From Mobula hypostoma (lineage: Eukaryota): DNA of 64,000 nt. This document shows positions 1 to 64,000 of this stretch, in pieces; positions within the stretch are counted from its first letter, which is position 1, and each line of letters starts with the position of its first letter. A program made the position numbers and the translations under genes. Under the pieces are notes generated by a model that searched no databases, was not told the DNA's origin, and worked only from the letters and a program-made list of their open reading frames with translations. The stretch spans positions 170,564,001-170,628,000 of the forward strand of contig NC_086097.1 of assembly GCF_963921235.1 (NCBI RefSeq), in the 5' to 3' direction.

Positions 1-1150
1 CCCAAGGATAGCAAGTTGGATGGTTCTGAACACACACTTGTCCTTGTTATAGGTGAGCTTGAAAGCTTTGGCCGCTTGGAAAAATTTTTGCAAGTTGTTG
101 TCGTGATCCTGCCGGTCGTGACCGCAGATGGTGATGTTATCCAGATATGGGAACGTGGCCTTCAATTGGCACTGGTCCACCATCCGGTCCATTTCCCTCT
201 GGAAGACAGATACACCATTTGTGACACCGAAGGGGACACGCAGGAAATGATAAAACCTGCTGTCTGCCTCGAAGGCGGTGTAAGGGCGGTCCTCCCGACG
301 GATGGGGAGCTGATGGTAAGCGGATTTTAGGTCCATGGTTGAGTTAACCTTGTACTGTGCTATCTGATTAACCATATCCATGATGCGGGGTAGAGGGTAC
401 GTGTCGAGCTGCGTGAACCTCTTGATGGTCTGGCTATAGTCCACGACCATCCTATTTTTCTCCCCGTTCCGAACGATGACCACCTGCGCCCTCCAAGGAC
501 TTGTGCTTGCCTCAATGACCCCCTCCCTGAGCAGCCGCTGCACTTCCGACTTAATGAAAGCTCTGTCCCCCCCGCTGTACCTCCTGCTTTTAGTTGCCAC
601 AGGTTTACAGTCGGGGGTCAGATTGGCGAACAGCGGTGGGGGAGGGATCCTGAGGGTGGAGAGGCCGCAAGTGGCGTTGGTAGTGCGGCAGTTGGCATGA
701 TGTTGGGTGGGAAGTGCGGGTCGGTGTGTGTGTGTGGTCAGTAGCGGGGTATGTGATGTATCCCTACAAAACTGGGGATTTACGACAGTAATTGGTGGGA
801 GTGGCCCATCATGCTCCATTGTCATGCTTCTCAGGTGGCTCTGGAAGTTGAGCTCCAACAGCACAGGGGTACACAGTTGAGGCATGACCAGTAATGTAAA
901 GTCTGGATATTCTGTGCCCTGCACCACTAGCGTCGCTACACAGCCCCCCCGGATGTCTGTTGTATGCGACCGGGAAGCCATGGTGACCCTCTGACTTACT
1001 GGCCATATCATGAGTCCGCAATGCTGCACCGTGTCCGGGTGGATAAAACTCTCCGTGCTGCCTGTGTCAAACAGGCAGCTTGTCCTGCGCCCCTCCACCA
1101 GGATGTCCATCATTGACCTTGCGAGCTGGTGGGGGGCGCTTTGGTCGAGG
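1..1150 (-). pseudogene. pol: Gypsy Pol fragment: aspartic protease + reverse transcriptase (continues past the left edge)
   Basis: Manual translation gives SCLFDTGSTESFI (about 1040-1080), PWRAQVVIV..NRMVVDYSQTIKRFTQLDTYPLPRI..DLKSAYHQ..TAF..RVPFGVTNG..FPYLDNITICG (YLDN at 136-147). The RT frame is open to base 1. Confidence 0.92.
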
Positions 1151-1151
1151 G

Positions 1152-2071
1152 TCACGGAGGCCAGAGTTGAGTTGCTGTCTTGGTCCGGCGAGGTGGGGTG
1201 CCTTGTGAGCACCCATGGGTTGTAGGTGGTGCAAGGTGGCGTTGACCAAGATGGTAGCCCCCATGTCTCGCACATGGTGGCAGCATGCAGGCAAGATGGC
1301 GACCCCCATGCCTCACACATGGCGCTACTCGATCCCGCTTTGACTTACAGACCTTGGCGAAGTGGCCCTTCTTTCCGCAGCTGGAGCAGGTAGCTTCTTG
1401 GGCCGGGCAGCATTTCCGGGAGTGCTTCTCGAGTCCACAGAAGAAGCACTTTGCAGACTCGCGACTGGCAGCAGCTGTGGTCGATTCGCCGGGGGGTTGC
1501 AGGGTCTGCGGCGTCCATGAGGCTGTCAGGAGATCCCGTGCCTGGACAGCGTCAGAGTTGTGCAGACTGGTCTTCAGCATATCAGCCAGCTCAATCGCCG
1601 AACGTAAGGTAAGATCGGCGTGTTCCAGCAGCCGCTGGCGCACATACACTGACCTGGTCCCCGTGACGAAGGCGTCTCTTACTAGGAGCTCCGCGTGCTG
1701 TTCAGCCGTCAGCCCCCGGCAATCGCAGGTCCGCACGAGTATCTGTAGGGCCTGGACGAACTCAGCGCTCGACTCTCCGGGCCGCTGCTGCCACGACGCT
1801 AAGCGATGTCGCGCATAGATGGTGTTTACCAGCCACAGGTATTGTCTTCTGAGGGCACTCATCGCGCCGTCATAGCTCACCTGGTTTCTAATCATCGAGT
1901 AGACCCGTGGACTGACCCTGGAGAGGAGAACTCTGCACTTCGTGGTGGACTTGGTCACTTCAATCTCCTCCAGGTATGATTCGAAGCAGGCCAGCCAGAG
2001 TTCGAAAGTGTTTCCGGCTTCAGGTGTTTGTGGGTCGAGGTCTAACTGTCGGGTCTCAGGACGTATCCCAT
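1152..2071 (-). pseudogene. gag: Gypsy Gag (frameshifted shortly after the ATG at 2071)
   Basis: MGYVLRPD / LDLDPQTPEAGNTFELWLACFESYLEE continues into ORF 1152..1958, which has the knuckles CFFCGLEKHSRKCC and CSSCGKKGHFAKVC (Cx2Cx4Hx4C). Confidence 0.9.
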
Positions 2072-2096
2072 GCTTTAAAATTACTGCTAATAAAAT

Positions 2097-2326
2097 TGAT
2101 GCACTATCAATTACTCCAAAAGACTGGAAGTAGAGTAAATACTGAAAAGCTTTTATTAACAGTAAAATGTGACCTCCACCATGCTGAGTGTCTGCCCCTG
2201 GACTGAGAGGAGGAGCAGTGGCACAATCGCCTTTATTCAGGGGTCTGTGGGAGGAGCCACAGGAGCAGTCAGCAGAGGGGTGTGTCCAGACAGGTAACCC
2301 AGTTACAACATATATGTTTTACCACA
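2097..2326 (-). repeat. 5' LTR (~230 bp) of the Gypsy element
   Basis: Minus strand starts TGTGGTAAAAC (2326) and ends GATAGTGCATCA (2097), i.e. TG...CA. Minus-strand AATAAA at about 2152-2157. Abuts the gag leader on one side and interrupts a SINE on the other. The second LTR is outside the window, so the ends are inferred. Confidence 0.75.
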
Positions 2327-2506
2327 CCCATTTGACAAATTATCCTACTAACGTGCAAGTCTTTGGAGTGTGGGAGGAAACCGGAGCACTAGGAGGAAAC
2401 CCAGACAGTCATGGTGTAATGTACAAACTCCTCACAGATAGTGATGCAATTGACCCCTCATCATAGGTGCTGTAATGGTGTTAAATTAACTGCTATGTTA
2501 CCACAC
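2327..2506 (-). mobile_element. tRNA-derived SINE (HE1/V-SINE-like), interrupted by the Gypsy LTR
   Basis: ctttggagtgtgggaggaaaccggagcac is the reverse complement of the V-SINE core; a degenerate tRNA-like head follows. Confidence 0.8.
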
Positions 2507-6199: not shown

Positions 6200-6264
6200 A
6201 AGCAACATACATCAAAGTTGCTGGTGAACGCAGCAGGCCAAGCAGCATCTATAGGAAGAGGTGC

Positions 6265-6300
6265 AGTCGACGTTTCAGGCCGAGACCCTTTGTCAGGACT
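6265..6300 (-). ncRNA. Minimal type I hammerhead ribozyme motif (G8>A variant)
   Basis: AGUC CUGACAA AGG-gucucgg-CCU GAAAC GUC GACU: stem I AGUC/GACU, stem II, GAAAC, palindromic ACGU stem III, GUC cleavage triplet. Confidence 0.75.
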
Positions 6301-6595
6301 AACTGAAGGAAGAGTGAGTAAGGGATTTGAAAGCTGGAGGGGGAGGGGGAGATGCAAAATGATAGGAGAAGACAGGAGGGGGAGGGATAGAGCCGAGAGC
6401 TGGACAGGTGATAGGCAAAAGGGGATACGAGAGGATCATGGGACAGGAGGTCCGGGAAGAAAGACAAGGGGGGGGGTGACCCAGAGGATGGGCAAGAGGT
6501 ATATTCAGAGGGACAGAGGGAGAAAAAGGAGAGTGAGAGAAAGAATGTGTGCATAAAAATGAGTAACAGATGGGGTACGAGGGGGAGGTGGGGCC

Positions 6596-7492
6596 TTAGC
6601 GGAAGTTAGAGAAGTCGATGTTCATGCCATCAGGTTGGAGGCTACCCAGACGGAATATAAGGTGTTGTTCCTCCAACCTGAGTGTGGCTTCATCTTTACA
6701 GTAGAGGAGGCCGTGGATAGACATGTCAGAATGGGAATGGGACATGGAATTAAAATGTGTGGCCACTGGGAGATCCTGCTTTCTCTGGCGGACAGAGCGT
6801 AGATGTTCAGCAAAGCGGTCTCCCAGTCTGCGTCGGGTCTCACCAATATATAAAAGGCCACATCGGGAGCACCGGACGCAGTATATCACCCCAGTCGACT
6901 CACAGGTGAAGTGATGCCTCACCTGGAAGGACTGTTTGGGGCCCTGAATGGTGGTAAGGGAGGAAGTGTAAGGGCATGTGTAGCAGTTGTTCCGCTTACA
7001 CGGATAAGTGCCAGGAGGGAGATCAGTGGGGAGGGATGGGGGGGACGAATGGACAAGGGAGTTGTGTAGGGAGCGATCCCTGCGGAATGCAGAGAGAGGG
7101 GGGGAGGGAAAGATGTGCTTAGTGGTGGGATCCCGTCGGAGGTGGCGGAAGTTACGGAGAATAATATGTTGGACCCGGAGGCTTGGTGGGGTGGTAGGTG
7201 AGGACCAGGGGAACCCTATTCCTAGTGGGATGGTGGGAGGATGGAGTGAGAGCAGATGTACGTGAAATGGGGGGGATGCGTTTAAGAGCAGAGTTGATAG
7301 TGGAGGAAGGGAAGCCCCTTTCTTTAAAAAAGAAAGACATCTCCCTCGTCCTAGAATGAAAAGCCTCATCCTGAGAGCAGATGTGGCGGAGACGGAGGAA
7401 TTGCGAGAAGGGGATGGCGTTTTTGCAAGAGACAGGGTGAGAAGAGGAATAGTCCAGATAGCTGTGAGAGTCAGTAGGCTTATAGTAGACAT
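6596..7492 (-). pseudogene. PLE ORF C-terminus with GIY-YIG endonuclease (frameshifted)
   Basis: GVIY...YIG motif preceded by the Cys cluster CKRNNCYTC. Confidence 0.9.
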
Positions 7493-8834
7493 CAGTGGAT
7501 AAGCTGTCTCCAGAGACAGAGACAGAAAGATCTAGAAAGGGGAGGGAGGTGTTGGAAATGGACCAGGTAAACTTGAGGGCAGGGTGAAAGTTGGAGGCAA
7601 AGTTATAAATGTATGTCCAAGGAATAAAGTCCTAACCTATTCAATCCTTCCATATAACTCAGCTCCTCCAGTCCTGGCAACATCCTTGCAAGTTTTCCCT
7701 GTACTCCTTCAACCTTATTATGTCTTTAGATGGAATGGAAGGGAATGATGGGCAGAATATGCTGCAGCGATACAAAGGAATAAGGAGATGAAATTTGACT
7801 GATGGAACTATGCCCTTGAGTGAGACCTTTTGAAGAAATGTGAGGATGTGGGCATATTCTCTCTGTGACACCTTGAATTCCAACAGTTCATAAAGATATA
7901 CAGATTAATTGGCCATTGTAAGTTGCCCTAGTGTGCAAGTGAATGGTAGAATCTGCGGGTAGGAGGCAGTGAGGGAGGGTTGAAATTGATGAGAAAATGG
8001 GTTGAAAGGAAAATGGGATTAATGTAGGATTTGTGTAAACTTATGTCTTTACGCTGTACTGTTGCTGCAAAATGTCAACATCATTTAAAGCAAATTTAAT
8101 AAACCTGATTGTGATTCTGAAATTAGATAATGTTCAGCATGAACTCAATGGGCTGAAAGGCCTGTTTCCAACCCCTATGACTATCTCTGAAAGATTTAGG
8201 AATATCTGATTGATTCAAAGTGTTAGAAAGGCAATGGGATGAATGTATTGGGCGGACTTGTTGATTGTTCCATATCCCAGTGAAAAACACAGTGGAACAA
8301 GTCTTGGATGGTGATTGTGGGATGGAGATAAAGTGGGGAAATGCTAAAGCTGAGACATCTTTTGAGAGGCAAAATTACTTTAGTTATGATAAAGAGTGAG
8401 CATCTCAGAAAAACCATGCAGCACTTTTGATATAGTAAAAGGACATAATTTACCTCTTCTGATTTTTGCTAAGATATACTGTATATATTTTTTCCTTTGT
8501 GCACAATAAGGCTTGATTCACTGTGGAATAATAGGTACCATATATAATACAGATTGATATTATTACAATGCCAGTGATACATCATGAAGGTAGGCTTTCC
8601 ACACACTATTTCTGATGATCGATTTGTACTCAAATGTGGGAAACATGAGCAACAAATCAATCATTAACTACCAGTTTATGATCAAGGTTTCTCGTGTTGG
8701 AGAGCCTTCTGTCAAATACTGATAAGAATCTTAAGAAACTTTCACTGGGGAAGTGTTCTCTGTTGAAGAAGGGGATGTCCAATTTTATTTTTAATCAGCG
8801 AAAGGAAATTTGCCTGTGAGTCTAATTTATAGAG

Positions 8835-13080: not shown

Positions 13081-14453
13081 GAGTGATAGGGCTGAGGAAA
13101 GGGAAAACAGAAATACATCAAAGAGAGCGTGCAACAGAGATAATAGAAAGGATAGGCAGGATGAGGCATAATCACAGCCGGTGGGATGAGTTACAGGGCA
13201 ATAGAGGTGTGGTGTAGTTAAAACAGAAAGCAACAAATACTGGACTGAAAGTGTTATATTTGAATGCACGCAGCGTAAAAAATAAAATGGATGACCTTGA
13301 AATTCAGCTACAGATTGGTAAGTATGATGCTGTGGCCATCTCTGAAACTTGGCTAAAGGGTAACTGCCATTGGGAGCTGAACGTCCAACGATATACAGTG
13401 TATCGGAAAGATAGGTCGGTAGGCAGAGGGGATGCTGTGGCCCTGTGTATAAGAAATAACATTAAATCATTAGAAAGGGATGACACAGGATCGGAAGATG
13501 TAGAGCCTCTATGGGTTGAGTTAAGAAATAACAAGGGTAAAAGGACTCTACATATAGCTTTTTTAAGTATATAAAGGGTAAAAGAGAGTTAAGGGTAGAT
13601 ATAGGACCAATAGAAAATGACGCTGGAGATATTGTAATGAGAGATGCAGAGATGGCAGAGGAACTGAATGTGTATTTTGCATCAGTCTCCACAGTGGAAG
13701 ACATCTGCAGTATACCGGACGTTCAACAGTGTCAGGGAAGTGAAGTATGTGCAGTGAAAATTACGATTGAGAAGGTGCTCGGGAACCTTAATGATTTGAG
13801 GGTGGATAAATCTCTTGGACTTAATGGAATGTACCTTCGGGTTCTGAAGAAAGTAGCTGGAGAGATTGCGGAGGCATTAACAATGATTTTCAAGAATTGA
13901 TAGATTCTGGGATTGTACCGGATGATTGGAAAATTCCAACTGTTACTCTGCTATTTAAGAAGGGTGGGAGGCAGCAGAAAGGAAACTATAGACCTATGAG
14001 CCTGACATCAGTGGTTGGGAAGTTGTTGGAATCAATTGTTACGGATGAGATTATGGAGTACCTGGAGGCACATGACAAGATAGGCCAAAGCCACCATGAA
14101 AGAAAATCCTGCCTGACTAACCTACTGCAATTTTTTGAGGAAATTACAAGCAAGGTAGACAAGGGAGATGTAGTAGATGTAGTGTACTTGGAATTTCAGA
14201 AGGCCTTTGACAAGGTGCCACACATCAGGCTGCTTAGCAAGATAAGGGCCCCTGGAATTACAGGAAAGGTACTAGCAGGGGTGGAGCATTGGCTGATTAG
14301 CAGAAAACAGAGAGTGGGAATAAAGGGATCCTATTCTGGCTGGCTGCCGGTTACCAGTGGAGTTCTACAGGGCTCGGTGTTGGCACTGCTGCTTTTTATG
14401 ATGTACGTCAATGATTTGGACTGTGGGATTAATGGATTTGTAGCTAAATTTGT

Positions 14454-17009
14454 GGCTAAAACAGTCGTCTGGATGTAGGGTGTAAGTTGAATCAAGAGTT
14501 AAAATTGGCATGTTGCAAAGGTAATGCTACAGTTGTTATGGGGGACTTCAACATGCAGGTAGACTGAAGGAATCAGGTTGGTACTGGACCCCAAGAAAGG
14601 GAGTTTGTGGAGTCCCTCCGAGATGGATTCTTAGAACAGCTTGTACTGGAGCCTACCAGAGAGAACGCAATTCTAGATTTAGTGTTATGCAATGAACCGG
14701 ATTTGATCAGGGACCTCAAGGTAAAGGAGCCATTAGGAGGTAGTGACCATAATATGATAAGTTTTAATCTACAATTGGAGAGGGAGAAGGGAAACTCGGA
14801 AGTGTCAGTATTACAATTGAACAAAGGGAACTATGGTGCTATGAGGGAGGAGCTGGCCAAAGTTCAATGGAACAATACTCTAGCAGGGATGACAGTGGAA
14901 CAGCAATGGCAAGTGTTTCAGGGAATAACGCGGAAGCTGCAGGATCAGTTCATTACAAAGAGGAAGAAAGATCCTAAGGGGAGGCCGTGGCTGACAAGGG
15001 AAGTTATGGACAGTATAAAAATAAAAGAGAAGAAGTATAACATAGCAAAGACGAGTGGGAAGCCGGCGGATTGGGAGCAACAGAAGGTAACTAAGAAGGC
15101 AATACGTGGAGAGAAAATGAGGTACGAAGGTAAATTAGCCAAGAATATAAAGGAAGATAGTAAAAGCTTCTTTAAGTATGTGAAAAGGAAAAAAAATTGT
15201 TAGGACCAAAATTGGGCCCTTGAAGACAGAAGCGGGTGAAGTTATTATGGGGAACGAGGAAATGGCAGACGAGTTGAACAGGTACTTTGGATCTGTCTTC
15301 ACTAGGGAAGACACAAACAATCTCCCAGATGTAATAGTGGCCAAAGGACCTAGGGCAATGGATGAATTGAAGGAAATTTATATTAGGCAGGAAATGGTGT
15401 TGGATAGGCTGTTGGGCCTGAAGGCTGATAAGTCCCCAGGACCTGATGGTCTGCATCCCAGGGTACTTAAGGAGATGGCTTTAGAAATCGTGGACACATT
15501 GGTAATCATTTTCCAATGTTCTATAGATTCAGGATCAGTTCCTGTGGATTGGAGGGTGGCTAATGTTGTCCCTCCCTTCAAGAAGGGAGGAAGAGAGAAA
15601 ACAGGGAATTATAGACCAGTTAGCCTGATGTCGGTGGTGGGAAAGATGCTGGAGTCAATTATAAAAGATGAAGTTACTACACATCTGGATAGTAGTAACA
15701 GGATCGGTCCGAGTCAGCATGGATTTACGAAGGGGAAATTGTGCTTGACTGATCTTCTGGAATTTTTTGAGGATGTAACTATGAAAATGGACAAGGGAGA
15801 GCTGGTGGATGTAGTGTACCTGGACTTTCAGAAAGCCTTTAATAAAGTCCCACATAGGAGATTAGTGGGCAAATTTAGGGCACATGGTATTGGGGGCAGA
15901 GTACTGACATGGATTGAAAATTGGCTGGCTGACAGAAAACAAAGAGTAGTGATTAACGGGTCCCTTTTGGAATGGCAGGCGGTGACCAGTGGGGTACCGC
16001 AGGGTTCAGTGCTGGGACCGCAGCTGTTTACAATATATATTAATGATTTAGATGAGGGAACTAAAAGTAACATTAGCAAATTTGCAGATGACACAAAGTT
16101 GGGTGGCAGTGTGAAATGTGAGGAGGATGTTATGAGAGTGCAGGGTGACTTGGACAGGCTGGGTGAGTGGGCAGATGCATAGCAGATGCAGTTTAATGTG
16201 GATAAATATGAGGTTATCCACTTTGGTGGTAAGAACGGGAAGGCAGATTATTATCTAAATGGAGTCAAGTTAGGAAAAGGGGAAGCACAACGAGATCTAG
16301 GTGTTCTGGTACATCAGTCACTGAAAGCAAGCATGCAAGTACAGCAGGCAGTGAAGAAAGCTAATGGCATGCTGGCCTTCATAACAAGGGGAATTGAGTA
16401 TAAGGGCAAAGAGGTTCTTCTGCAGCTGTACAGGGCCCTTGTGAGACCACACCTGGAGTACTGTGTGCAGTTTTGGTCTCCAAATTTGAGGAAGGACATT
16501 CTTGCTATTGAGGGAGTACAGCGTAGGTTCACAAGGTTAATTCTCGGGATGGCGGGACTGACATATGTCGAAAGATTGGAGCGACTAGGCTTGTATACGC
16601 TGGAATTTAGAAGGCTGAGAGGGGATCTTATTGAAACATATAAGATTATTAAGGAATTGGACTCGCTGGAGGCAGAAAGCATGTTCCCGCTGATGGGTGA
16701 GTCCAGAACCAGAGGCCACAGTTTAAGAATTAGCGGTAGGCTATTTAGAATGGAGTTGAGGAAAAACTTTTTCACCCAGAGAGTGGTGGATATATGGAAT
16801 GCTCTGCCCCAGAAGGCTGTGGAGGCCAAGTCTCTGGATGCTTTCAAAAAAGAGATGGATAGAGCTCTTACTGATAACAGAATCAAAGGTTATGGGGATA
16901 AGGCAGGAACTGGATCCTGCTTGTAGATGATCAGCCATGATCACAGTGAATGGTGGTGCTGGCTCGAAGGCCTGAATGGCCTACTCCTGCACCTATTGTC
17001 TATTGTCTA
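14454..17009 (+). mobile_element. CR1 LINE B, 5'-truncated, young, flanked by a TSD
   Basis: TAAATTTGT at 14445-14453 and 17010-17018; (TATTGTC)n tail; ORF2 largely intact. Confidence 0.95.
14520..16926 (+). pseudogene. CR1 ORF2p (APE C-terminus + RT); frameshift at the A-run near 15190 and TAG at 16180-16182
   Basis: [67 protein letters not shown]. Confidence 0.95.
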
Positions 17010-17938
17010 TAAATTTGTCAATGATACAAAGAAAGGTGGAGGTGTGTGTAGTGTTGAGGAAACAGAGAGCCTGCAGAGGGACTTAGATAGTTTAGGGGAA
17101 CGGGCAAAGAAGTGGCACATTAAACACAAAGTTGGAAAGTGTATGGTCATGCACTTTGGTGGAAGAAATTAATGGAAGACTACTATTTAGATAGGGAGAG
17201 AATTCAAAATGCAGAGACACAAAGGGACTTGGGAGTCCTTGTGTAGGATACCCTAAAGGTTAACCTCCAGGTTGAGCTGGCGGTGAAGAAGGTGAATGCA
17301 ATGTTGGCATTCATTTCTGGAGGTATAGAGTATAAGAGCAAGGATATGATGTTGAGGCTCTATAAGGCACTCGTGAGACCACACTTGGAGTATTGCGTGC
17401 AGTTTTGAGCTCCTTATTTTAGAAGGGATATACTGACATTGGAGAGGGTTCAGAGAAGATACACATGAATGAGTCCAGGAATGAAAGGGTTAATGTATGA
17501 GGAACATCTGGCAGCTTTTGGGCTGCATTCCCTGGAGTTCAGGAGAATGAGGGGGGATCTCACAGAAACATTCCAAACGTTAAAAGGCCTGGACAGAATA
17601 GATATGGCAAAGTTATTTCCCATGGTAGGGGAGTCTAGGACAAGCGGGCACGACTTCAGGATTGAAGGATGTCCATTTAGAACAGAGATGTGAAGAGGGT
17701 GGTAAATCTGTGGAATTTGTTGCCATGAGCAGCTGTGGAGTCCAAGTTATTGGGTGCATTTAAGGCAGAGATAGATAGGTTCTTGATTAGACAGAGCATG
17801 AAAGGTATGGGGAGAAGGCAGGGGAGTGGGGATGACTGGAGGAATTGGGGATGACTGGAGGAATTGAAGCCAATGATTGGTGGAGCAGACTTGATGTGCT
17901 GAATGGCCTGCTTCTGCTCCTATACCTTATGGTCTTAT

Positions 17939-45020: not shown

Positions 45021-45124
45021 TCATGGGGTATGATCAGCACTGATTGGGGTTTCAGCTGTGGCAGGGGCAATGGCAAGTAATGAAAACAGTAAGGATTCCA
45101 TAGTGTAGCAGGCTTGGGGATTTT

Positions 45125-45900
45125 ATTTTTATGGTAGACAATTTTCTAAATGGAGAGAAAATTCAAAAATATGAGATGCAAAGGGACTTGGAAGTCCTTG
45201 AGCAAGATTCTCTAAAGGTTAATTTGCAGGTTGAGTTAGTGGTGAGGAAGGCAATTGTGATGTTAGCATTCATTTCAAGAGGACTGGAATATAAAATCAA
45301 GGATTTTATATTTATAAAGCACTGGTGAAGCCCCACTTGTTGTGAACAGTTATGGGTCCCTTATCTGATAAAAGATGTTTGGGCACCTTATAGAAATGTG
45401 GATTTGCAGACATTGGAGAGGGTTCAAAAAGGGGTCACAAAACAGATTCTGGGATTGAAAGGAATGTTTGATGGCTCTGGGCCTCTACTCACTGTTATTC
45501 AGAAGAATGACGGGTTACCTCATTGAAACCTATCAAATGTGAAAGACCTCAGTAGAGTGGATGTGGAGAGAATGTTTCCTATGGTGGGGAAGTCTAAGAC
45601 CAGAGGACACTGCCTCAGAATAGAGAGACAGCTATTTAGAACAGAGATGAGGAAGAACTTCTTTAGCCAGAGAGTGGTGAATCTGTGGAATTCACTGCTA
45701 CGGGTAGCTGTGGAGTCCAAGTCATTGGGTATATTTAAGGCAGATGTTGATAGACTCTTGATGAGTCAGGGCATGAAGGGAAATGGGGAGAAGGCAGGAG
45801 ACTGGGCTGAAGAGAAAATGGATTAACCATGATGAAATGGGCGGAGCAGACTTGATGGGTCAAATGGCCTACTCTTCATCCTATATCTCATGGTCATTTC
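45125..45900 (+). mobile_element. CR1 3' fragment
   Basis: QRDLEVL, MFPMVG.SKTRGH, RKNFFSQRVVNLWNSL. Confidence 0.88.
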
Positions 45901-59859: not shown

Positions 59860-62825
59860 GATAGCACAGCACAGACACAGGCTCTTCAGCCCCTCTAGTC
59901 CATGCCAAACCATTAATCTGACTAGTCCCATCGATCTGCACTCAGACCATAGCCCTCCATCCATGATCCTATCCAAATTTCTCTAAAATGTTGAACTCAA
60001 CCACCCATCCACTATTTGCACACATTTCACGCTCTCACCACCCTCTGAATGAATGTTCCCCCTCATGCTCCCTTTAAGCAGTTGACCTTTCACCCTTACC
60101 CATGACCTCTAGTTGTAATCTCACCCAAACTCAGTGGAAAAAGCCTGCTTACATTTACCCTATCTATACCCCTTATAATTTTTGTATACCTCCATCTAAT
60201 CTCCTCTCAATCTTCTCTTTCCAGGGAACAAAGATCCGAACCTATTCAACCTTTCCCTATGCTGTAACTGAGGTCCTCCAGACCAGGAAACATCCTTGTA
60301 GATTTTTCTGCACCCTTTCTATCTTATTTACATCTTTCTTGTAGGTAGGTAATCAAAACAATACAAATTAGGCTTCACCAACATTCTATATAATTTGAAC
60401 AAAACCACTGACAACATCTGCACACAATTTCTGATACCAATATACAAAGATACACTTTCTGATGTGTGTTGAAGAAATGAACAGATGTTGATCTAAAAAA
60501 GAACATGTTTTCTGAGGACTGACTATAATATGAACCAAGCTACAATGATCAAAACGAGATGTTTTTAGGCTAGGCAAATAAAAATACAGGTTATAGACTA
60601 TCAACTTGAAATGGCATTTCTGTTTGTTTCTCTCTACGTGTGCTGCCTAACTTGATTACTTCTTGCATTCTACTTTTATTTCAGATTTTCAGTATCTGAA
60701 GTACTTTTTTGTTTTACAACATAAACACAGTGTATGGTGCAACCATGCTCAAAATCATAGCACATGGTAGACTGCATTCTTAAAGGAACACCTTTAATTG
60801 TAATTGGAATTCAAATTGCCTTTTTTTTTATTGTCAAGTGTGCTGAAATACAACAAAAAGCTGGTCTTACATACTGTTCGTGCGGATCATTGAGGTAGAA
60901 TAAGGTGAAACAGTAACAGCACAAACTATGTGTAATATACAGAGATTGTGCAGTGCAGGTAGACAATAAGGTGCAAAATTATAACAAGGTAGATAGTGTG
61001 GTCAAGAGTTCATCTTGTACTAGGCAACCTTTCAATAACCTTATAACGGCAGTGTAGAATTTGATCTTGAGTAAGTAGTACGTCTTGGGTGTCAGGTTAA
61101 GGATAGCGACAAGGATGAGAGAACTGGGGTAATAATGAAGAGTTAAAAGAAGGAATTCAGTTCTGAGGTCAGCAGTCCCCAAAGGCAGAGGTCTGAGGTC
61201 CAAGGTCTGTGGGCTCTGAGAGCACAGTGAGTACTGGGGTCAGATGTTTGAGGTTAGAAGTCTCTAGATTTGAACCCAAGGTCGGTCAGCAGGTTTTGAG
61301 GTCAGAGGGCTGTGATGTTTAAGTCCTGGAGTCAAAGCCCAGACGTCGGTGAGTCTGGAGCTCGAAGTTTAGAAATTGAAGCACTAAGGTAGGCAAGTCC
61401 ACATGTCAAAGCCCAAAGATTGAAGCTCCAAGATGGTAAGTCCAGAGGTCAGCAGCTCAATGCCTGTGAGTTCATGGCCATAGTCTCAAAGGTGCCCTGC
61501 CCTGGGGTGAGTGACCTGTCAGAGTGTGCTGGTAGTTGTAGGGTGCAAAAGGGATTCGTTTTGTTGTTGATATTCTTTGTTGCTATTGTGGTTTTCTTCT
61601 TGTTGCTTAAACTGTTTTGCTGATCATTGTAGGCATGCTATGTTGGCTCTGAGATGTGTGGCACTGCTTGTGGACTGGCCACAGCACATCCTCAGACTGT
61701 ATTGGTTGTCAGTGCAAACAATGCATTTCGCTTTATGTTTCGCAGTACATGTGATTAACAAATATGTCTAATCTAATCTCTGCCCAATGGAAGAAGGGAG
61801 AAGGGAGTATATCCTGAACAGTTAAAAACTTGTGGGTCGGTCTGTTAATTAGCCACTGTAAATTGTTCCTTGTTTATGATGACAATTGAAGGAGTAGACA
61901 CAAGATAAGAGCAGAATTAGGTCCTTCATCTCATCAAGTCTGCTCCACTATTCAATTGTGGCTGATTTCTTTTCTCAACCCTATTCTCCTGCCTTCGCCC
62001 CCTAACCTCTAATCCCCCTGACCCATCAATAACCTGTCAATCTCAGCCATAAATACACCAATTGACAGCTTCCATAGCCCTGTGTGGCAACAGATTTCAC
62101 AGATTCCCCAGCCTCTGGTTGAAGGCATTCCTGCTTGTCTCAGTTTAAAAGGAATGCCCCTTTATTCTGAGGTGGTGCCCTCAGATCCTGGACTCTCCTG
62201 CTAATGGAAATATCCTCTATCGAGATCTTTCAGAATCCAGTCGGCTTGAATGAGATACCCCTCGTTCTTCTGAACTCCATCAGGTAAAGGCTCTGCACCA
62301 TCAAACACCCTTCATACGTTAAGCCTTTCATTCTTGGCAGCCTGGAAGGAGTTGTGAATGAGGGGAAAACAAAAATGGGATTTGTGTAGAACTAGCATAA
62401 CAGGGGTGATTGATGGTCAGAATGGACTCAATAAACCAAAGGGATGGTTCCCCTGTTGTGTGATAATCTGGATCGAGACAATTGGCTGCAAGGTGGTGAA
62501 CTGAGCTCTCTGCCTTGTTTACAGAGAATCGCAAGTTAGCTAAATCAAGGTGAATGCCATCAGGGGACGCTAACTTTTGTCGATCTTCTGATTCCAGCAA
62601 TAATCAAAACCTGACATTGTCACCCAATCAAAATCAAAGTCAAAAATCACATTTACTGTCATACACACAAGTACACATTTGCATAGGTGCAAAGAAAATC
62701 TTACATGCAAGAGCATCACTGGCACATAGTATCAGATGCTCAAATTTAAAAAATCGAAATCACAATTTAACAACTTAAATTGTACAAAATTGTAAAAGAA
62801 AGAACATATTTAAAACAAAACAATA
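59860..62825. mobile_element. Mosaic: CR1 minus (about 59860-60385 and 61900-62335), Rex-like tails (about 60825-61080, 61500-61775, 62625-62825), SINE tail (about 62340-62470)
   Basis: Family-shared tail motifs as elsewhere in the window. Confidence 0.65.
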
Positions 62826-62834
62826 ACAAAGCCC

Positions 62835-64000
62835 AAACATGAGGAAATCTGCTGGAAATTCAAGCAACACGCACAAAAATTGCTGGTGAATGCAACAGGC
62901 CAGGCAGCATCTATAGGAACAGGTATAGTCGATGTTTCGGGCCGAGACCCTTTGTCAGGACTAACTGAAAGAAGAGATAGTAAGAGATTTGAAAGTGGGA
63001 GGGGGAGGGGGAGATCTGAAATGATAGGAGAAGACAGGAGGGGGAGGGACGGAGCTAAGAGCTGGAAAGTTGATTGGCAAAAGGGATATGAGGCTGGAGA
63101 AGGGTGAGGATCATGGGATGGGAGGCCTAGGGAGAAAGAAAGGGGGGGTGAACCCAGAGGATGGGCAAGGAGTTATAGTGAGAGGGACAGAGGGAGAAAG
63201 AGAGGAAAAAGGGGAAAGAAAAAAGTAAGTAAATACATAAGGGATGGGGTATAAAGGGGAGGTGGGGCATTAACAGAAGTTAGAGAAGTCAATGTTCATG
63301 CCATCAGGTTGGAGGCTACCCAGACGGAATAGAAGGTATTGTTCCTCCAGCCTGAGTGTGGCTTCATCTTTACAGTAGAGGAGGCCGTGGATAGACATAT
63401 CAGAATGGGAATGGGATGTGGAATTAAAATGTGTGGCCACTGGGAGGTTCTGCTTTCTCTGGTGGACAAAGCGTAGGTGTTCAGCGAAATGGTCTCCCAA
63501 CCTGCGTCGGGTCTCGCCAATATATAGAAGGCCGCATCGGGAGCACCGGACACAGTATATCACCCCAGCCAACTCACAGGTGAAGTGTCGCCTCACCTGG
63601 AAGGACTGTCTGGGGCTCTGAACGGTGGTGAGGGAGGAAGTGTAAGGGCATGTGTAGCACTTGTTCCGCTTACAGGGATAAGTGCTGGGAGGGAGATCGG
63701 TGGGAAGGGATGGGGGGACGAATGGACATGGGAGTCGCGTAGGGAGCGATCCCTGCGGAAAACAGAAAGGGGGGAAGGGAAAGATGTGCTTAGTGGTGGG
63801 ATCCCTTTGGAGGTGGCAGAAGTTACGGAGAATTATATGTTGGACCCGGAGGCATAGGTGAGGACAAGGGGAACCCTATTCCTAGTGGGATGGCAGGAGT
63901 ATGGGGTGAGAGCAGACATGTGTGAAATGGGAGAGATGTGTTTGAGAGCAGAATTGATGGTGGAGGAAGGGAAGCCCCTTTCTTTAAAAAAGGAGGACAT
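62835..64000 (-). mobile_element. Penelope-like element, young, runs off the right edge; same subfamily as 6200-7605
   Basis: ORF 63270..63596 GVIYCVRCSRCGLLYIGETRRRLG..LQPDGMNIDFSNF; very similar to 6200-7340. Confidence 0.95.
62926..62963 (-). ncRNA. Minimal hammerhead motif (G8>A; triplet AUC)
   Basis: UAGUC CUGACAA A GGG-ucucgg-CCC GAAAC AUC GACUA, with a perfect 5-bp stem I. Confidence 0.7.

Follow-up and report, generated by a model that had tools for sequence, protein, structure and literature searches.

Predicted priming by an LTR-derived RNA segment in a chromodomain-less clade of Ty3/Gypsy elements, with a decayed copy in the ray Mobula hypostoma

The window, i.e., the whole 64,000-nt stretch of contig NC_086097.1 of Mobula hypostoma that was analysed, opens with a decayed Gypsy copy on the minus strand, with its 5' half inside the window and its 3' part outside. 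The full element, completed from the neighbouring stretch L031, measures 4424 bp, with LTRs of 230 and 232 bp that are 94% identical, and a PPT precedes the 3' LTR. The 5' LTR (2097-2326, minus strand, TG..CA), the ends of which were set by both LTRs and the TSD, is flanked by the 5-bp TSD ATGGG (2327-2331, minus strand); the second ATGGG stands beyond the 3' LTR, outside the window. The gag frame (1152-2071, minus strand, ATG at 2071) encodes two CCHC-type knuckles; in this copy, it is disrupted close to its beginning. Protease and reverse transcriptase, the latter with the catalytic motif YLDN, occupy 1-1344 (minus strand), and RNase H and integrase fall outside the window. The domains are ordered gag, PR, RT, RH and IN, split over several frames in this copy. 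Pfam gave no match in gag, and the Atlas gave only generic gag/CCHC clusters. Two TG..CA LTRs, a TSD, a PPT and the gag-PR-RT-RH-IN order place the element in Ty3/Gypsy. The acidic residues of RNase H align with those of Ty3 in P0003, and the same motifs are found in this copy: the catalytic residues are present, and cutting activity is predicted from them. Neither a chromodomain nor SH3_Tf2-1 was detected in the seven proteins scanned, nor do these occur among the precomputed domains of the 120 homologs listed.

The LTR terminates in ..GTGCATCA at 2097, and the next base, an A (2096, minus strand), is a one-base spacer between the LTR end and the PBS. The PBS, TTTTATTAGCAGTAA (2081-2095, minus strand), contains no TGG and pairs with a segment of the LTR itself, TTACTGTTAATAAAA (2151-2165, minus strand), which is the predicted 3' part of a self-primer with a predicted cut at 2151/2150. 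An AATAAA (2152-2157, minus strand), a candidate poly(A) signal, lies within the duplex, and the gag ATG follows 25 nt beyond the LTR. A sequence-only reading of the window had described this 15-nt LTR complement at the PBS position, the AATAAA inside the paired segment and the ATG about 25 nt downstream, and its sequences and coordinates are all confirmed. Its statement that a TGG PBS is lacking holds as well, the LTR end being fixed by the 3' LTR and the ATGGG TSD. Another LTR end hiding a TGG was considered and is ruled out: 19 of 20 fetched copies carry two LTRs with identical end positions.

An anchored helix of at least 15 pairs, G-U allowed, arose in 4 of 5000 LTR shuffles. The helix is present in both the MFE and the centroid folds, and the z-score of the whole region is only -2.0. 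The lone G-U in the duplex, previously taken as a sign that pairing occurs on the sense RNA, lost this meaning on comparison. It is a private C-to-T change in the 5' LTR of this copy, the 3' LTR having C, and over 60 ray copies the position reads C-G 48 times, T-G six times, C-A five times and T-A once; it varies by decay on either side and is therefore uninformative on the strand.

The family is large in the ray, with 3378 first-look candidates in the 3.5-Gb genome, and it comprises two sister subfamilies, A and B, between which three duplex positions are changed on both sides (60 of 60 copies read). Counted from the duplex end, position 11 of these copies reads T-A in 31 and A-T in 29, position 15 is T-A in 31, G-C in 27 and otherwise in two, and position 8 is T-A in 26, G-C in 25 and mismatched in nine. 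Covariation between leader and LTR segment is thus present within the family, even if the A/B differences stem from one subfamily split and represent few independent events. At position 8, the copy L048 has the letter of subfamily B on both sides, LTR as well as leader, and in L043 and L046 this letter is confined to the LTR. A hairpin at the LTR end is also possible (2097-2109, minus strand). Its arms read TGATG..CATCA in subfamily A and TGAAG..CTTCA in subfamily B, both arms being changed, and it is not kept in all other families.

Homologs were found in rays, sharks, cnidarians, a nematode, a cestode, a rotifer, a crinoid, a cephalopod and a butterfly, the closest named ones being from rays among the matches listed. 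For the wider comparison, 92 loci were collected from metagenome and genome contigs; 33 of them have a gag start (34 sites), and three sites are too close to a contig end. A helix of 11-20 pairs between the leader and the upstream LTR is present at 26 of the 31 assessed sites. Fewer than 11 pairs were counted at the other five (L089, L103, L113, L124 and a second site in L116), of which L103 and L113 resemble decayed versions. The duplex is thus conserved across divergent members. Gypsy elements (L178-L189) were also met in contigs of bacterial MAGs, most likely through contamination by animal host DNA, and no relatives of the element were found in the viral contigs scanned.

Eighteen of the 26 sites, eight near-copies having been dropped, were combined with the two ray subfamilies in a table of 20 representatives, which correspond to about 16 independent families. 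At positions 1-13, 256 of 260 cells are Watson-Crick pairs and two are G-U, and each of positions 4-13 shows two to four pair types, so that the covariation extends between families. The near-copies L067 and L069 are separated by one double change in the duplex. The register is fixed: the helix begins directly after the LTR-end CA and one spacer in 19 of 20 representatives (L058 is mismatched at the first pair), the leader opens with TTT one base past the CA, and the LTR end is found at the same offset wherever both LTRs are present. The next pair inward is non-Watson-Crick in 20/20. Pairing is seen at positions 14, 15 and 16 in 13, 15 and 12 of the 20, and at positions 17 and 18 in five and eight; the outer border of the duplex is therefore soft and the inner one sharp. 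The partner has TAAA or TAAAA at its 3' end in 19 of 20, and in 19 of 20 its tenth base, counted from that end, is a G. Each leader fits its own LTR, with 12-18 pairs in 19 of 20 representatives, and foreign leaders reach at least 11 pairs in 12 of 380 combinations. The predicted probability of the helix ranges from 0.81 to 1.00. Just 3' of the duplex, an RCC able to pair downstream occurs in 16 of 20 (shuffle p ≤ 0.05 in five of 20); in the window, the bases 3' of the predicted cut (2143-2150, minus strand) take this place, which in the representatives frequently forms one side, the 5' arm, of a putative second short helix. No third duplex was established.

In none of the 20 representatives does a TGG lie 5 nt or less from the LTR end; it is present in the controls L187-L189. 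The leaders are 15-36 nt long and hold no other primer site. As a further control, three elements with a TGG PBS give 7-8 pairs, up to three of which are G-U. Of seven sushi-type copies in this genome, four form 10-11 pairs at offset 1, the same one-base offset as in the clade described here. In these four (L167, L173, L176 and L177), a TATA-like stretch is found about 30 nt upstream of the LTR partner of the 10-11-bp self-PBS. Another observation concerns L078, where an 18-nt direct repeat (~2230-2335) is common to the LTR upstream of the partner and to the leader, overlapping the PBS end.

The start of the RNA was predicted from promoter-like motifs at the usual spacing between TATA box and initiator, and poly(A) hexamers were taken with their common variants. 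A TATA-like box, GAATAAAG, lies at 2231-2238 (minus strand) and an initiator-like CTCAGTC at 2201-2207 (minus strand), which puts the predicted start at 2204, with 54 nt from there to the duplex end. In most copies of subfamily B, the box reads TATAAAG, and some 31 nt separate it from the A of CTCAGT, itself 51 nt away from the duplex end. No TATA match was found in the other 18 representatives, so that this TATA/initiator support concerns the ray family. There, the RNA probably starts upstream, near 2204, with the primer located internally, about 40 nt inside the transcript. Outside the ray family, transcription could begin at position 11, as in Tf1, if the T-W-W-G-Y-like motif found there at positions 13-9 marks the start. 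The LTR is covered by contigs that may derive from RNA, and no RNA starts or ends are visible in them.

Twelve of the 20 representatives have an AATAAA or ATTAAA inside the duplex, the others having GTTAAA, TTTAAA or GGTAAA at this place. In L051 and L053, a hexamer is found downstream, outside the duplex. The overlap between hexamer and duplex is a strong tendency and no rule, and it would fit a layout in which the cut site is just before a short R.

The best reading of these observations is a Tf1-like self-priming in a Gypsy clade without chromodomain, with a primer cut after ..TAAA and probably internal. We estimate at roughly 0.8 the probability that the element primes from a 5' fragment of its own LTR RNA and not from a tRNA, a judgement that draws on sequence comparisons. 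With the 5' and the 3' LTR taken together as possible sources, self-priming by an LTR-derived RNA is very likely in our view. The RNA would start near 2204, and the LTR segment would pair with the PBS. The element's RNase H would then cut right after ..AAUAAAA, by analogy with Tf1, and the 5' fragment of ~54 nt would prime minus-strand DNA across U5. Strand transfer would proceed via a short R that runs from the cut to a poly(A) site, the position of which would be determined by this hexamer as present in the 3' LTR. Finally, plus-strand copying of the primer would rewrite the PBS, by which both sites would stay perfectly complementary. The cDNA of Tf1 is reported to retain, at the 3' end, the PBS as a single-stranded copy (PMC11042837), and the copying of the primer is therefore plausible here. 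The hiding of AAUAAA in the 5' LTR would come as a side benefit.

Failed rounds of such a process may have left traces in the genome. A search pattern composed of the LTR end and the PBS reading on into reverse-complement LTR, to which arms below ~21 nt are invisible, gave four exact matches in subfamily A and 30 in subfamily B, or 14 and 56 when two mismatches were allowed, i.e., 70 loci in total; reversed-pattern controls gave none. The normal junction of subfamily B has 492 exact matches, and the fold-backs thus amount to about 6% of B junctions. The typical insertion is an LTR, an A and an inverted 175 bp of LTR, forming a palindrome of ~406 bp (L258-L327). The LTR start is reached in 60 of the 70, and two more extend to 163-165 of the 175 bp, so that 62 go to about the LTR start or beyond. 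The TSD could be compared at 41 loci: 25 have an exact 5-bp TSD, five have one with a single mismatch and 11 have no match, six of these 11 continuing into reverse-complement PPT and integrase. At least eight fold-backs in all extend into these sequences, three of them for more than 1.3 kb. The exact TSDs and the precise LTR starts point to integrase-mediated insertion of a reverse-transcription product and not to later rearrangement. For sushi-type elements, a search with one pattern from one copy, and with no denominator, gave no matches.

The remaining eight arms are short (28, 33, 39, 50, 50, 52, 55 and 57 nt, the arm of L302 being 50 nt as measured on its own LTR), and none falls between 58 and 162 nt. 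Five of the eight end between -1 and +4 of the predicted start A (51 nt in B, 54 nt in A). With arms below 21 nt invisible, ends blurred by microhomology and a small sample, this agreement gives only moderate support to an internal primer. Moreover, fold-backs could arise when a plus-strand end anneals either to another RNA or within its own strand; they thus indicate an LTR-complementary end at this site and not which molecule acted as primer. The arms of 21 palindromes diverge by 4.5% from each other and by 6.1% from those of other palindromes, which fits either origin of the primer.

The long fold-backs (62 of 70) are left unexplained by a 54-nt primer alone, and they bring in the 3' LTR as a rival source. 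In this case, the segment near the 3' end of the same or of a co-packaged RNA would pair with the PBS and prime after a cut behind AAUAAAA, and minus-strand DNA would begin joined to the end of the genomic RNA. The fold-backs that carry PPT and integrase sequence need a sense template with 3' internal sequence, as this route would provide, and PPT priming on such a copy would produce the exact second LTR end of the palindromes. On the other hand, the long fold-backs are about 6% of junctions (30 vs. 492 exact, subfamily B) and, having two integrable ends, are probably over-represented; plus-strand strong-stop DNA annealed to a second RNA would give identical products; and the 5' fragment is favoured by those short arms whose ends coincide with the predicted start. 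Priming from the 3' LTR is hence considered unlikely.

Two further explanations do without an LTR-derived primer and are much less probable still. The duplex could mainly serve to mask AAUAAA in the 5' LTR, priming being achieved by other means. The hexamer within the duplex in 12 of 20 representatives, the TAAA(A) closing it in 19 of 20 and the high helix probability would suit such a mask, but it requires neither the fixed one-base offset from the LTR end nor the near-absence of G-U pairs (2/260). Furthermore, eight of 20 representatives have no hexamer in the duplex, and two have one outside; no alternative primer site is available in the short leaders; and the fold-backs start exactly at the PBS. 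A mask as the main role is therefore very improbable, and as a function added to priming it is a tentative suggestion. The poly(A) mask that the sequence-only reading had offered beside self-priming is in this way weakened, the hexamer being inside the duplex in 12 of the 20 and downstream of it in two families. Self-priming itself is well supported, by the fixed register, the compensatory changes, the lack of TGG in all 20 representatives, the sushi-like offset and the fold-backs. Even less credible is priming by a host tRNA fragment with an incidental LTR match. The anticodon loop of the host tRNA-Ser(GCT) has 9 nt in common with the subfamily A partner; this match, however, begins five bases from the LTR end and shrinks to 5 nt in subfamily B, and a tRNA cannot track a PBS that, family by family, varies together with the LTR of the same element. 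Among host tRNAs, the base-by-base comparison covered tRNA-Ser(GCT), and the tRNA search yielded tRNA-Lys(TTT) loci only.

To our knowledge, self-priming has been proven experimentally for Tf1 only, and the trait is taken to characterise the Tf1/sushi group. In the literature searched, from which Repbase and most subscription papers were outside the scope, no description of self-priming in the present clade was found. The elements Tf1 and Tf2 of Schizosaccharomyces pombe, Tj1 and the Tf1/sushi group likewise have no tRNA PBS, and their PBS beside the LTR end complements the LTR (PMC10085805, PMC7175516, PMC4600332). The putative second helix next to the predicted cut would be reminiscent of the "pretzel" of three duplexes described for Tf1 in the same sources. 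The Tf1 primer consists of the transcript's initial 11 bases, RNase H cutting between bases 11 and 12 (PMC7175516, PMC10085805). In comparison, the duplex here has 12-18 bp instead of 11, ends in TAAA, often as part of a poly(A) hexamer, and in the ray family is probably ~40 nt inside the transcript and not at its 5' end. The clade also differs from Tf1/sushi by the lack of a chromodomain or SH3_Tf2-1 and by an RT only 26-30% identical to sushi-type RTs. Further literature considered includes PMC3601003, PMC5443660 and PMC5341516.

Self-priming has been predicted, from LTR-PBS complementarity of at least 10 bp, for the TAR lineage (Houba, Osr-1) of plant Ty1/copia elements and for Tcn1 chromoviruses (PMC6317226). 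TAR lies outside the Tf1/sushi group. These elements belong to another superfamily or lineage and to other hosts, and the available part of that paper describes no overlap with a poly(A) signal. Skipper of dictyostelids and the fungal GalEa and biv-TRIM elements also have no TGG PBS, and non-tRNA priming has been proposed for them, but with a polypyrimidine tract and no LTR complement in Skipper and with a hairpin in the internal domain in GalEa and biv-TRIM (PMC5006619, PMC6934838). The named metazoan Gypsy clades include Mag A/B/C, Cigr-1, CsRN1 and MolGy (PMC6238403).

The RT trees place the clade on its own long branch (100/100), apart from the sushi-type elements of the ray genome and from TGG-primed elements. 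The alignment consisted of 24 rows of RT only, with no named Tf1 or sushi-ichi sequence, and the tree is unrooted. On these rows, the AU test gave p = 0.49 for the clade and the sushi-type elements as one side of a branch, so that self-priming in the clade may be shared with Tf1/sushi by descent or may have arisen independently. The HIV-1 5' poly(A) hairpin also holds the AAUAAA of the 5' LTR in a stem, in a virus primed by a tRNA; that stem lies within R, whereas the partner here is the PBS, outside the LTR.

A broader and rather doubtful proposal is that Gypsy self-priming arose a second time and is animal-wide, with an internal cut at the hexamer end in either LTR, a single segment serving at once as poly(A) signal, as primer and as the template from which the PBS is rewritten, and TSD-flanked palindromes, which map the primer, being left behind by rounds that failed. 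If self-priming holds, the clade would greatly widen tRNA-independent priming and bear on the question of whether this way of priming is an ancestral trait or arose repeatedly. Silencing by tRNA fragments would not reach such elements, and annotation tools would overlook them when a TGG PBS is among their requirements. The fold-back palindromes would offer a genomic means of mapping primers without experiments; as insertions (L258-L327), they are liable to be mis-annotated as solo LTRs or MITEs.

The RT motif of this element (P0002, window 1-1344, minus strand) and of all ray copies read is YxDN and not YxDD. It occurs in 54 of the 63 homologs with a readable motif, YLDD being found in deeper-branching members, and in elements with 99-100% identical LTRs (L053, L065, L067). 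A YVDN motif is reported for the Cer7-12 BEL elements of C. elegans (PMC554778). The rest of the window contains many decayed LINE-like and SINE-like repeats (6200-7630, 13800-17800, 45100-45800 and 62800-64000).
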